Shown here piece by piece: positions 16,860 through 30,688 of a stretch of 32,000 nucleotides of DNA. The notes beneath the pieces were generated by a model. The model was not told the origin of the DNA and made no database searches. It was given only the letters and a program-made list of their open reading frames with translations. This DNA comes from Thermodesulfobacteriota bacterium (GTDB taxonomy: Bacteria > Desulfobacterota > WTBG01 > JAGOGO01), in the NCBI GenBank assembly GCA_026625185.1, contig CP113000.1:2325622-2357621 (forward strand). The letters run 5' to 3'. Position numbers and translations under genes: made by a program. Each line of letters starts with the position of its first letter. The stretch's first letter is position 1.

Positions 16860-16872
16860 TGCCAGCGTGGGG
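16860..16872 (-). other. putative displaced 3' end of tRNA-Thr (T-stem 3' strand + acceptor 3' strand + discriminator)
   Basis: The minus strand reads CCCCA-CGCTGGC-A. This is the exact complement of the acceptor 5' strand (GCCAGCG) and of the T-stem start (TGGG) found at 30639-30688. Confidence 0.5.
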
Positions 16873-16924
16873 TTAGTATATGAATGATGGGATTAAGGAT
16901 CAAGCCAAACCGGAAGGAGGTCAA

Positions 16925-17692
16925 ATGAATTACAACGAAGCCTTAAAAGTGATCAATCCAATGGCCGCGCTTAAATCCCTTAAAATAGAGGGAAAAGAAG
17001 AAGGAGTTTACATTTATTTTCCTTGCCCGGAGTGCAACGAAGACGCAGTAATCAAAGCCTATGGAGAAAAGAAAAATCTCTGGCTCTGCACCAGGTGTAA
17101 AGTTTGCGGACATATTATAACCTTGGCGATGAAAATGGAAGCCCTTAAATTTGAGGAAGCCAAACAATTTCTCCTTAAAAAAGCCATTAGCTCAATCAAT
17201 GAAATTGACGAGGAACTGAACATAAACTACGAGCTTGAATGGTGCGAGTTTATGCAATATGAAAACCTTGACCGGGAAATATGCGAAAAACTGGGAATCG
17301 GAAAGCCAAAAGGAAAAACCAATATGCCTGGTCATCTCGCTTTTACTGTCTTGAATGAAAACCGTAAAAAGGTAGGTTATGTGGGAATCAAAATCGCCAA
17401 CGGGAAGCCCTACATTCCTAAATCATTCCATCCGGAATTCTATCTTTATAACCTATGCTATATAGACCCAGATGATGAAGTTGTGCTTACTCCCGATATG
17501 CTGGATTGCGTTAGGCTCTTAAGCCAGAGAACGCAGGCTATCTCTAATTTTTGGCTTCCCTCCCTGTCCATAAAACAGTTGGAACTTCTTCAGCCGATTA
17601 CATATCTCAGTGTTAAAGGATTTGGAGAAAATACCAGTGAAATAGCGGTAAAGCTGGCTCGTTTTCATGGAAGTTATTATCGGTTTATCTAA
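16925..17692 (+). CDS. DnaG-like protein: C4 variant of the primase zinc finger plus Toprim-like domain lacking catalytic acidic residues
   Basis: A strong GGAGG lies 5 nt before ATG 16925; the track ORF starts at 16880. CPECNEDAVIKAY...LWLCTRCKVCGHIITLAMKMEALKFEEAKQFL parallels the CHC2 finger. GHLAFTVLNENRKKVGYVGIKI..GKPYIPKSF...LYNL parallels GRIxFPIxDxxGxVxGFGGR...KYLNSPET..LYGL. VVLTPDMLDCVRL and LSVKGFGENT replace the EGxxD and DxD motifs. Confidence 0.6.
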   Translation: MNYNEALKVINPMAALKSLKIEGKEEGVYIYFPCPECNEDAVIKAYGEKKNLWLCTRCKVCGHIITLAMKMEALKFEEAKQFLLKKAISSINEIDEELNINYELEWCEFMQYENLDREICEKLGIGKPKGKTNMPGHLAFTVLNENRKKVGYVGIKIANGKPYIPKSFHPEFYLYNLCYIDPDDEVVLTPDMLDCVRLLSQRTQAISNFWLPSLSIKQLELLQPITYLSVKGFGENTSEIAVKLARFHGSYYRFI

Positions 17693-17780
17693 AATAAATA
17701 ACGGCACACTGACAATTCAGGTGCGGTTTTCTCTTGACAATGTGGGCCTTATAAGTGTTAGATTTTAATTCTTAACTATG

Positions 17781-18014
17781 TCAACCAATTTTCCTTGAAT
17801 GATCTCTGGCTAAAGTGAGGCCGGGGTGTTTTCTCTGAACAATAGAAACTGCCTCATTCAAGTTTTTCGCTTCAACTATTTCAGTAAATCCAACCAAATC
17901 CGAATGCAGCTCTTCTCCATTGGAGTTGACTTTTACTCCGTTATCCCAGAAGTCGCGGTAATCCCTTTCCCTTCCTTCTCGGATTATAGAAATGCTATAA
18001 GTGCTTTTTACCAC
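17781..18014 (-). CDS. hypothetical 77-aa protein
   Basis: ORF only, with a GTG start and a weak SD. It lies 95 nt downstream of the 249-aa gene on the same strand. Confidence 0.35.
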   Translation of the reverse strand: MVKSTYSISIIREGRERDYRDFWDNGVKVNSNGEELHSDLVGFTEIVEAKNLNEAVSIVQRKHPGLTLARDHSRKIG

Positions 18015-18109
18015 TTTCCCATTCCTTCTTGATTGAGTTGGCTATTTGTGACCCATAACGCCGCTCATAACCAGAGGGCAGATTTTGGCCCACCTGATTC
18101 ATGAGCTTG

Positions 18110-28972: not shown

Positions 28973-29910
28973 AAAGCGTTCTCCAGATCCTCGAACTTCT
29001 CGGTCTTCCCCGCGCACAAAGAAACGAGCGCTCCGCGCTCTGTTTGCTGGCCCTGCTGAATCTTACGCCTAAAAAGACCTGGGCGCAGGCTGAAAGCCCG
29101 CTTGTAGGCATCACACCCATGATGGATTTTAGCCGCAAGCACTACGGCAAGGAATATGCCCCCAACACGCGGGAAACTTTCCGCCGCCAGACAATGCACC
29201 AGTTTATGCAGGCAGGGATAGCGCTATACAACCCCGACAAACCCGATAGGCCGGTCAACAGCCCCAAAGCTGTTTACCAAATCTTGCCCGAAACGCTTGC
29301 CTTACTGAAAACCTATGGTACTAATCAATGGGAGCCCTCGCTAAGGCGGTACCTTTCGACAAGAAAAACCCTTGCCCAGCGCTACGCCAAAGATCGTAAG
29401 CAGACTTTAATACCCGTACAAATTGCACCAGGTAAACAAATCCATATCAGCCCGGGTGAACACAGCGAGCTTATCAAGGCAATTGTCGAGGACTTCGCGC
29501 CACGCTTCGCACCTGGCGCCACATTAGTCTATGTTGGGGACACGGGGGAGAAGTGGAGCTATTTCGATAGAGAACTATTGATCAAGATAGGCCTGACGGT
29601 TGATTCACACGGCAAAATGCCGGACGTTGTTCTCTATTATGGCAAGAGGAATTGGCTTTTACTGGTCGAATCCGTAACTAGTCACGGCCCGGTCGATGGG
29701 AAACGCCACGAAGAGCTGGCAAAGTTGTTTTCCAGCACATCTGCGGGTTTAGTATATGTCACGGCTTTTCCTTCCCGTTCAATCACTGCCCGTTATCTTA
29801 GTGAAATAGCCTGGGAAACGGAGGTATGGGTTGCGGAGTCACCTTCACACCTGATCCATTTCAACGGGGAGAAGTTTTTAGGGCCTTATAGCGAAAAGTC
29901 TGCCGGGTAA
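28951..29910 (+). CDS. type II restriction endonuclease, BsuBI/PstI family
   Basis: The 319-aa C-terminal core MPDVVLYYGKRNWLLLVESVTSHGPVDGKRHEEL matches the BsuBI_PstI_RE signature as I recall it. It overlaps the MTase gene by 22 nt. Confidence 0.75.
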   Translation: MPEYENIKSVLQILELLGLPRAQRNERSALCLLALLNLTPKKTWAQAESPLVGITPMMDFSRKHYGKEYAPNTRETFRRQTMHQFMQAGIALYNPDKPDRPVNSPKAVYQILPETLALLKTYGTNQWEPSLRRYLSTRKTLAQRYAKDRKQTLIPVQIAPGKQIHISPGEHSELIKAIVEDFAPRFAPGATLVYVGDTGEKWSYFDRELLIKIGLTVDSHGKMPDVVLYYGKRNWLLLVESVTSHGPVDGKRHEELAKLFSSTSAGLVYVTAFPSRSITARYLSEIAWETEVWVAESPSHLIHFNGEKFLGPYSEKSAG

Positions 29911-30341
29911 GGAAATGGCAGTGAAGTTGGCATAAACGATTCTTTTCCCCGAGGTGATCTCCAATATCCCTTCAACCAAACTTTCTAAAATGACTTCAAA
30001 ATGCTTTTTAATCGCGAGTAGTTCCCTGGTAGCTTCTCGGAGAAAGGTGCTTTCCGTTCCTTTTATTTCTTCCCCTTCAAAAGCTTTTTTACGATTTTAA
30101 CACGAAAAGTAAAAATATCAAAAATATTAATGGCTTTAAGGGATATGGGTAGGCTTTCCCTGCCATCCGTCCTTGTCTCTATACAGGCATTTTTCCTTTA
30201 AGCCAATAAATGGCTACAGCCTATCGCAACTGACTAAAAACTCAAGGGAAAAATTTGCTATACCTCTATCGCTTTTTCTTTATTTTTCTCACGCTCTGTG
30301 CTAATTGTGTGGCCTGAAAAATTATTTTTCTTGACGGGGTG

Positions 30342-30467
30342 ATGGATCATGTAAAGATAGTGGGTATTTGGATTCGGGTCTTCACTGAAGATCAGGCCAA
30401 GGGCGAAAGCCCGGAACACCATAAAAGGCGTGCCCGATTTTATGACCAATCAAAAAGAAGGAAATGA
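30342..30467 (+). pseudogene. serine recombinase N-terminal stub (41 codons) with catalytic Ser replaced by Phe
   Basis: My translation is MDHVKIVGIWIRVFTEDQAKGESPEHHKRRARFYDQSKRRK*. Compare the consensus (Y/C)xRVSTxxQ...G.S.E.Q......YA. TTC stands where TCC/TCN Ser is expected. The track instead lists an antisense 63-aa ORF. Confidence 0.5.
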
Positions 30468-30638
30468 GAGAGATTGAGCATTTTGAGTCAGGAATAAACT
30501 GGTGTCCAAATAGTGTCCATGAGAGAGCTAAAATGGGGTAAAAAGACCTGACAGAATCTAAAACAGAAACAATAAAAAAATATTTTTAAAACAATAAGTT
30601 AGATAAATATTTGCCTATATTCGATAACTTGCAAAAGT

Positions 30639-30688
30639 CCCATAAAACTGATTACGAATCAGTTGCTCTACCGCTGAGCTACGCTGGC
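30639..30688 (-). tRNA. tRNA-Thr(CGU), 5' portion only (acceptor 5' strand, D arm, anticodon arm, start of T stem); truncated
   Basis: GCCAGCG TA GCTC AGCGGTA GAGC A ACTGA TTCGTAA TCAGT TTTA TGGG. It has U33 and purine-37, and the anticodon is CGT. The following bases (ACTTTTGCAAG...) cannot form a T arm. Confidence 0.75.

Follow-up and report, generated by a model that had tools for sequence, protein, structure and literature searches.

Classical tRNA islands and prophages whose crossover is in the anticodon loop (sublocation classes of Williams 2002; Islander, PMC4383910) are integrated by a tyrosine integrase at a core site within the symmetric anticodon stem-loop, their target gene is regenerated, a displaced fragment of the tRNA gene is left at the far end, and arm sequences flank the core. 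These elements carry the 3′ part of the tRNA, so that a 3′ fragment remains downstream, and the tRNA retains its promoter. The configuration filter of Islander admits 5′ fragments upstream (PMC4383910). For the pTN3-like integrases of Thermococcales, the minimal attachment (att) site spans tRNA-Leu nt 2-44, and the integrase promoter drives expression of the recombinant tRNA (PMC8371274; Cossu et al. 2017, PMC5495485), a configuration that is seldom encountered in bacteria according to a review (PMC8371274). Large serine recombinases leave both complete halves of a split, unregenerated target gene abutting the element, and no duplicated core. Here, we describe a stretch of 32,000 nucleotides from a Thermodesulfobacteriota bacterium (assembly GCA_026625185.1, contig CP113000.1, positions 2,325,622 to 2,357,621 of the forward strand; hereafter the window), in which a fragment of a tRNA-Thr(CGU) gene stands beside dprA at the right edge of an island with defence genes. 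This fragment (30646-30688, minus strand) is probably the displaced native 5′ part of the tRNA gene, located at the integrase-distal junction of an integrative element of the tyrosine-integrase type. The feature is thus a relic junction, that is, the decayed boundary of an island formed by a known but uncommon kind of element.

Read on the minus strand from 30688, the window gives GCCAGCG TA GCTC AGCGGTA GAGC A ACTGA TTCGTAA TCAGT T, which comprises the acceptor 5′ strand, the D arm and the complete anticodon arm (nt 1-43). Homologues of DprA led to three contigs (L005, L006 and L007; 88-90% DprA identity), each with an intact 74-nt tRNA-Thr(CGU) divergently upstream of dprA, and searching metagenomes with tRNA nt 1-42 gave 21 loci, the tRNA being intact in 21/21 and the dprA-side flank of the window being present in 17. 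From 30688 to 30646 the window is identical to the intact gene of the relatives at 43/43 nt (L005, L006, L009, L015, L020, L022 and others), and the upstream flank taacataaattaaaaacaca is shared as well; the preliminary description of this DNA was therefore right in taking the right-hand sequence for a true piece of the chromosomal tRNA-Thr(CGU). The stub has kept its place beside the native upstream flank and dprA (30703-31854, plus strand), the gene that anchors the locus, which has 88-94% nucleotide identity to its relatives, with the tRNA immediately upstream in all of them. Past nt 43 the window continues as TTATGGGAC... and diverges totally from the intact gene, while at the same point [T/C]GGTC GGTGG TTCAATC CCACT CGCTGGC T is found in 21 metagenome loci and 3 relatives, the full gene of the lineage being the above 5′ part up to TCAGT followed by this 3′ part. 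Its authentic 3′ end is accordingly CCACTCGCTGGCT, with the T stem GGTGG/CCACT and a discriminator T at 24 loci. Since identity ends at nt 43 (30646), the gene is broken where the anticodon stem ends, between nt 43 and 44 and 5′ of the variable loop, and not in the T arm as had been claimed. The acceptor, D arm and anticodon arm that had been recognised (30688-30646) are genuine, and the last 7 nt that had been added to them (30645-30639, 'TTTA TGGG') are sequence of the adjoining arm.

ARAGORN, the check that had been proposed, called no tRNA in the window, and Rfam gave one borderline tRNA match (30630-30688, minus strand; score 30.8 bits, gathering score 29), a local alignment that omits the whole T arm. 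The authentic 25-nt 3′ part was absent from both strands of the window with up to 3 mismatches allowed, and neither a second copy of the anticodon-arm core nor flanking direct repeats were found in the window. Synteny with the dprA relatives stops at 30645, and it is indeed at the edge of accessory DNA that the tRNA piece sits, as first described. The junction is unlikely to be an assembly chimera because L001 and the window, which were assembled independently, are 100% identical across it. A further contig from another sample of the population (L002, a k-mer-based Logan contig, SRR21915714) ends at window position 30659, exactly after tRNA nt 30; such an end is expected if the 5′ part of the tRNA has a second context there, be it a rebuilt copy or another organism, and was not used as evidence.

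The sequence on the other side of the junction is a conserved attachment arm (30496-30645, plus strand). A 21-nt identity between window positions 30500-30520 and a distant, integrase-bearing tRNA-Thr locus (L021) revealed the 18-bp motif GTGTCCAAATAGTGTCCA, which consists of the paired heptamers GTGTCCA-AATA-GTGTCCA, 11 bp start to start (30502-30519, plus strand), and is conserved as an exact 18-mer in many genomes. The 150-bp arm, including a box TTCGATAACTTGCAAAAG near the junction, has a mean column identity of 79% to the arms of L040 (Thermodesulfobacteriota), which ends at a tRNA-Gln stub, and L067 (Thermodesulfovibrionia), which ends at a tRNA-Arg stub, and its first ~60 nt are common to L068, L109, L123, L128 and L140. 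The stub of the window starts 127 nt after the motif. With its exact 18-mer, an arm of about 150 bp and a stub within the range of 113-138 nt, the window belongs to what we define here as the GTGTCCA-N4-GTGTCCA arm family.

When one genome of each GTDB species was scanned, the exact 18-mer turned up in more than 120 stretches among the matches listed, covering many bacterial phyla as well as Methanosarcinaceae and Promethearchaeota, often in multiple copies and often near contig ends, and the family appears to be far more widespread than reported. The genes that overlap the motif encode tyrosine integrases of about 365 aa (Phage_integrase and Int_N in Pfam). In the tail of these integrases the motif is read in three frames (MDTIWT 22, GHYLDT 6, WTLFGH 3), and it is therefore the DNA that is conserved and not the peptide. 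The pattern makes it probable that the integrase binds the heptamers as arm-type sites, which would overlap the end of its own gene. Two scans of viral contigs, one with the motif and one with the junction, gave no matches; blastn of 29911-30700 against phage and plasmid collections matched the tRNA stub only, and tblastn for tyrosine-integrase remnants returned a 7-aa tail (21 nt) as its sole match.

How such arms are arranged in other genomes was surveyed across 124 motif instances, using ARAGORN for intact tRNAs and comparing the DNA 60-260 nt past each motif with 114 tRNAs for fragments. In the most frequent arrangement on the integrase side (type B, 32 loci), an intact antisense tRNA has its 5′ end 53-78 nt before the motif and the integrase lies on the other side; the integrase is upstream of and co-directional with the rebuilt tRNA at these 32 loci and also at two loci of the lineage studied here (L153 and L155). 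The corresponding distal arrangement (type D), an antisense 5′ tRNA fragment covering nt 1 to 37-44 and starting 113-138 nt after the motif, was found at 20 loci at least, the window included. Classical arrangements are a minority, with the tRNA's 3′ end before the motif at 5 loci (type A) and a sense 3′ fragment (nt 26-74) at 4 loci (type C). Four contigs hold both ends of an element, inserted in tRNA-Thr(CGU) (L057), tRNA-Met (L062), tRNA-Arg(ACG) (L080) and tRNA-Val (L114). The near end of each consists of integrase, motif and intact tRNA, and the far end of a second, slightly degenerate motif, an arm of about 125 nt and tRNA nt 1 to about 40 in the same orientation, with the stub stopping in or just past the anticodon loop. 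A few 5′ positions differ between the stub and the intact copy on these contigs, as would be expected were the 5′ half of the intact gene derived from the element.

From these layouts we infer a mechanism in which elements of the family would recombine within the anticodon stem-loop, with the crossover falling in the 7-nt anticodon loop. In the attachment site of the element (attP), a tRNA 5′ half would lie shortly downstream of the integrase gene and run in the same direction. Integration would then rebuild an intact tRNA from the 5′ half of the element and the native 3′ half, 53-78 nt past the integrase stop codon, and would displace native nt 1 to about 40/43 to the far end, joined to an arm of about 150 bp with two GTGTCCA heptamers to which the arm-binding domain of the integrase would bind. 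In the window, the anticodon stem-loop ACTGA-TTCGTAA-TCAGT (30647-30663, minus strand), directly after which native identity ends, would be the core site of crossover, and the stub is best understood as a duplicated 5′ fragment, not as one half of a split gene. The preliminary description had held that the tRNA was not regenerated; the window indeed lacks an intact copy, but the element family to which the arm belongs does rebuild the tRNA, namely at the integrase end.

This arrangement is the mirror image of that of classical islands, as the displaced fragment is a 5′ fragment and lies upstream, and its closest described counterpart is the pTN3-like configuration. In both, the att site is the 5′ half of a tRNA, through the anticodon arm (nt 1-43 in the window and nt 1-37 to 1-44 in the family, compared with nt 2-44 of tRNA-Leu), the rebuilt tRNA lies downstream of the integrase and thus depends on element-side transcription, and the displaced 5′ fragment is at the other end. 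The likeness is one of layout, the family integrases being placed by Pfam Phage_integrase/Int_N only. In contrast to the pTN3-like elements, the present family occurs in bacteria and, for some members, in archaea, extends over many phyla and is defined by an arm with paired GTGTCCA, and the window itself is without integrase or rebuilt tRNA.

The regular layout also bears on a different route to the same junction, in which the integrase would have catalysed an inversion between the anticodon stem-loop and an inverted att or pseudo-att site, moving the 3′ half to a distant breakpoint, so that the tRNA would be truly split and the element ends separated. The anticodon arm is nearly palindromic, its antisense matching its sense strand at 14/17 positions, in L128 and L140 the arm subfamily of the window abuts 3′ fragments of tRNA-Thr(CGU) in sense orientation, and the pTN3 integrase, likewise a user of the tRNA 5′ half, catalyses chromosomal inversions (PMC5495485). 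Locally, the integrase end is missing and the exopolysaccharide (EPS) gene flank to the left is non-syntenic with relatives. Against this, the joining of an arm to a 5′ stub is the majority layout and a regular one (at least 20 loci), and four contigs pair the stub with an intact tRNA at the integrase end and no inversion. An inversion is therefore not needed for the junction, though it could explain the separated ends, and we consider it an unlikely origin. Among the sense 3′ fragments, those of tRNA-Thr(CGU) or tRNA-Met in L128, L140 (motif +115 nt), L085 and L118 start exactly at the anticodon stem, and the tRNA-Thr fragment at type C junctions starts exactly at AACTGATTCGTAATCAGT. That related arms occur in both orientations is plausible because of the near-palindromic anticodon arm.

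If the stub is a displaced 5′ fragment, the window keeps only the distal junction (arm 30496-30645 plus stub), and a later deletion or rearrangement would account for the integrase and the rebuilt tRNA, which are absent from the window and from about 9 kb to its left. Either a deletion of the integrase end or an inversion that moved the ends apart would be compatible with this, and the outcome would be an immobile mosaic of about 14 kb of defence genes and gene fragments. Of the features expected of an Islander-type island, the terminal tRNA fragment is present at one end (nt 1-43), whereas an intact cognate tRNA at the other end was found neither in the window, nor in L003, a variant contig from the window's population, nor in the 9.3 kb further left, and no Phage_integrase match was obtained among the open reading frames (ORFs) of the island and the six-frame pieces of 29880-30700.

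Several observations weigh against an origin as a displaced 5′ fragment. An integrase, a second copy of the motif and an intact tRNA are all absent from the window, and the 9.3 kb to its left contain EPS genes only and no partner end. The EPS flank never stands beside the tRNA-dprA pair in relatives, and no clean empty site can be reconstructed. The joining of the window's own arm subfamily to sense 3′ fragments in L128 and L140 means that its orientation is not fixed. Gene fragments lie directly inside the arm, the 150-bp arm may be all that is left of the original element, and its link to the cargo is tentative. The function of the arm as a binding site and the position of the crossover are likewise predictions from sequence comparison.

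The same gene fragments would also suit an unrelated, illegitimate deletion that took the 3′ part of the tRNA and happened to end beside an old att arm, leaving the stub as a simple truncated gene: just inside the arm lie an N-terminal PAS fragment cut by restriction-modification (R-M) genes and a short orphan ORF, and the window has no partner end. The endpoint of such a deletion would, however, have to fall both where the anticodon stem ends and precisely where the arm stops distally, and would also have to reproduce the 113-138-nt spacing between motif and stub that is seen at at least 20 independent loci. We regard this origin as very improbable, and a displaced 5′ fragment remains the preferred reading of the stub.

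Comparison of the flanks shows where synteny ends. Two sets of relatives each have one flank in common with the window, namely the dprA relatives (L005-L007 and L008-L028) and the EPS relatives (L029-L031); synteny with the latter stops at about 16468 and with the former, as said, at the arm. The 84-aa ORF that lies downstream of the tRNA in relatives is absent from the window. A histidine kinase gene considered as an anchor for the far side was rejected, its orthologue being inside the EPS cluster of L030.

Integrase-proximal ends exist within the lineage. One is seen in L155 (contig k141_174337), in the order TrwB-like ATPase, 349-aa integrase, TGGACACTAATTGGACAC, 57 nt, intact tRNA-Thr(CGU), the 84-aa ORF and leuCD; it has no cargo in common with the window. 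The second lineage locus, L153 (1.5 kb, JGI sample 3300040736), starts in an integrase tail, after which come TGGACACTAATTGGACAC and, 57 nt further on, an intact tRNA-Thr(CGU) followed by native flank with the 84-aa ORF. The window's own population was found in JGI sample 3300040744, numbered close to that of L153, and the ranking of L153 by identity to the relatives parallels that of the window's dprA. Possibly, L153 is the missing integrase end of the genome described here.

The tRNA-Thr site is a hotspot for several integrase specificities, and decayed remnants are common there. In L027 (8150-8430), L007 (1450-1760) and L009, other paired direct repeats lie 40-70 nt downstream of the same tRNA-Thr (TAGCTACCCT x2, TAGCTAACCT x2 and TTGACCGTTT x2), and no integrase is present at the repeats of L027.

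In the preliminary description, the sequence 30688-30639 and a second piece 13.8 kb away (16872-16860, minus strand) had been taken for the two parts of a tRNA-Thr(CGU) that was split in its T arm by an island and not regenerated, either through a serine recombinase or through later decay. The left-hand sequence, CCCCACGCTGGCA, is present at 16872-16860, its 11-mer GCCAGCGTGGG occurs once in the window against 0.01 expected by chance, and it lies on the correct strand in a non-syntenic zone about 400 bp from the end of EPS synteny, in a window without an intact tRNA. The uniqueness of the 11-mer stands, but its apparent improbability is void because it was predicted from bases that are not tRNA, TGGG being arm sequence and the true T stem and discriminator being those given above for 24 loci. 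Compared with the true end CCACTCGCTGGCT, positions 16860-16872 have 3 mismatches in 13, the discriminator (A, not T) among them, and matches to CCACTCGCTGGCT with up to 3 mismatches number 4 in the window against 5.5 expected by chance, so that the agreement is at chance level while the stub is undecayed (43/43). The acceptor complement CGCTGGC occurs in 4 copies on the minus strand of the window, no tRNA-like Rfam match was obtained at 16860-16872 at E<=5, and the flanks of the site are unlike the native downstream flank of the tRNA. Furthermore, the variant contig L003 has an extra 2.7 kb between the 13-mer site and the EPS genes.

Joining the two pieces in silico, as had been proposed, gave a tRNA fold only with a supplied G and T loop, and the direct join does not fold. 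The relatives carry at this locus an intact tRNA-Thr(CGU) whose 3′ half differs from CCCCACGCTGGCA, which is the very observation that the preliminary description had named as speaking against it. As a candidate tRNA 3′ fragment, 16860-16872 (minus strand) was consequently rejected on the mismatches, the chance-level count and the dissimilar flanks, and on sequence grounds we take the 13-mer for a chance match unrelated to the stub. The 13-mer is enclosed by the two arms of a perfect 8-bp inverted repeat, TATACTAA-N13-TTAGTATA (16852-16880), which could be an operator; it lies upstream of an ORF with a CHC2 zinc finger (Pfam), for which the ribosome-binding site points to 16925 as the most likely start.

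The serine recombinase fares no better. Large serine recombinases have in common with the split originally described that the target gene would be divided and not regenerated; here, however, the 3′ half is absent, the adjoining DNA is the arm of a tyrosine-integrase element, and the serine recombinase is unconfirmed. No recombinase remnant was found at the element end, and two complete halves are not present, the true 3′ half being absent from both strands. The supposed recombinase stub (30342-30467) is part of a short ORF (30318-30467, plus strand; …IVGIWIRVFTEDQAKGESPEHH…) whose resemblance to an RVS(T)xxQ N-terminal motif is by eye only, and its 49-aa piece (30318-30464) had no match in Pfam (E<=10), NCBIfam (E<=1), PDB or tblastn against plasmids. 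Altogether, a split in the T arm is so improbable that it can be set aside, and we return to the stub as the displaced 5′ fragment of an integrated element.

The stub together with the arm makes a recognisable att junction, by which the right boundary of the defence island is fixed to the base (30645/30646). An orphan 5′ tRNA fragment with such an arm can be used as a precise marker of an island end, and annotation tools should not assume a 3′ partner fragment. The survey suggests that integration by replacement of the 5′ half is possibly commoner than the literature implies, because 32 integrase-side and at least 20 distal junctions of this kind stand against 5 and 4 classical ones among the loci with the motif. 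If true, this matters for island-finding software and for the takeover of host tRNA expression by elements. More tentatively, and with considerable doubt about the whole of it, the 18-bp motif might mark a very widespread two-domain family that mostly replaces the tRNA 5′ half and thereby puts the tRNA under element-side transcription, while the present genome has lost or relocated its integrase end, the only tRNA-Thr(CGU) of the host has perhaps been destroyed for good as a by-product, and the native 5′ fragment can no longer be rejoined to a 3′ half.

The accessory region between the EPS genes and the arm (16469-30495) is a mosaic without an intact recombinase, as judged with Pfam, PADLOC and Rfam. 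Besides the CHC2 zinc-finger ORF, it includes a stretch on the minus strand (18901-19006) that matches group II intron domains D1-D4 (Rfam, 43.8 bits, E 7e-06); no reverse-transcriptase/maturase ORF lies near it, and the piece is probably an intron fragment. A 249-aa ORF downstream of this piece (18110-18859) has no family match. A complete Gabija pair follows on the minus strand (19302-23170), with GajA, an OLD-type ATPase with TOPRIM (1e-214), and GajB, a UvrD-type helicase (4.5e-261). Also on the minus strand (23339-25986) is a 620-aa fusion of a QatC-like/QueC-like PP-loop protein with a C-terminal restriction endonuclease of the DpnII/MboI type, preceded by an overlapping 262-aa ORF; since no QatA, QatB or QatD is found nearby, this fusion is not a canonical Qat system. 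The region further includes an R-M pair of the PstI/BsuBI type (Pfam/PADLOC). To its right, a PAS-like N-terminal piece on the minus strand (29911-30096; ...KKHFEVILESLVEGILEITSGKRIVYANFTAIS), stop-free over 72 codons and with weak PAS matches (E 0.04), is cut where the BsuBI/PstI restriction endonuclease gene ends, and is probably a gene fragment that was truncated by the arrival of the R-M module.

At the opposite end of the region, the extra 2.7 kb of L003 encode a 689-aa PAS/GerE regulator and a 61-aa ORF and are flanked by a 101-bp direct repeat (L003 6979-7079 and 9793-9893). A PAS/GerE gene in L027 was considered as an orthologue of the regulator gene and found unconvincing at 35% identity. 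The window has a single copy of the repeat (16572-16672), and as the regulator gene runs at its 3′ end into the repeat, of which only one copy is left, the window looks like the product of a deletion between the repeats.

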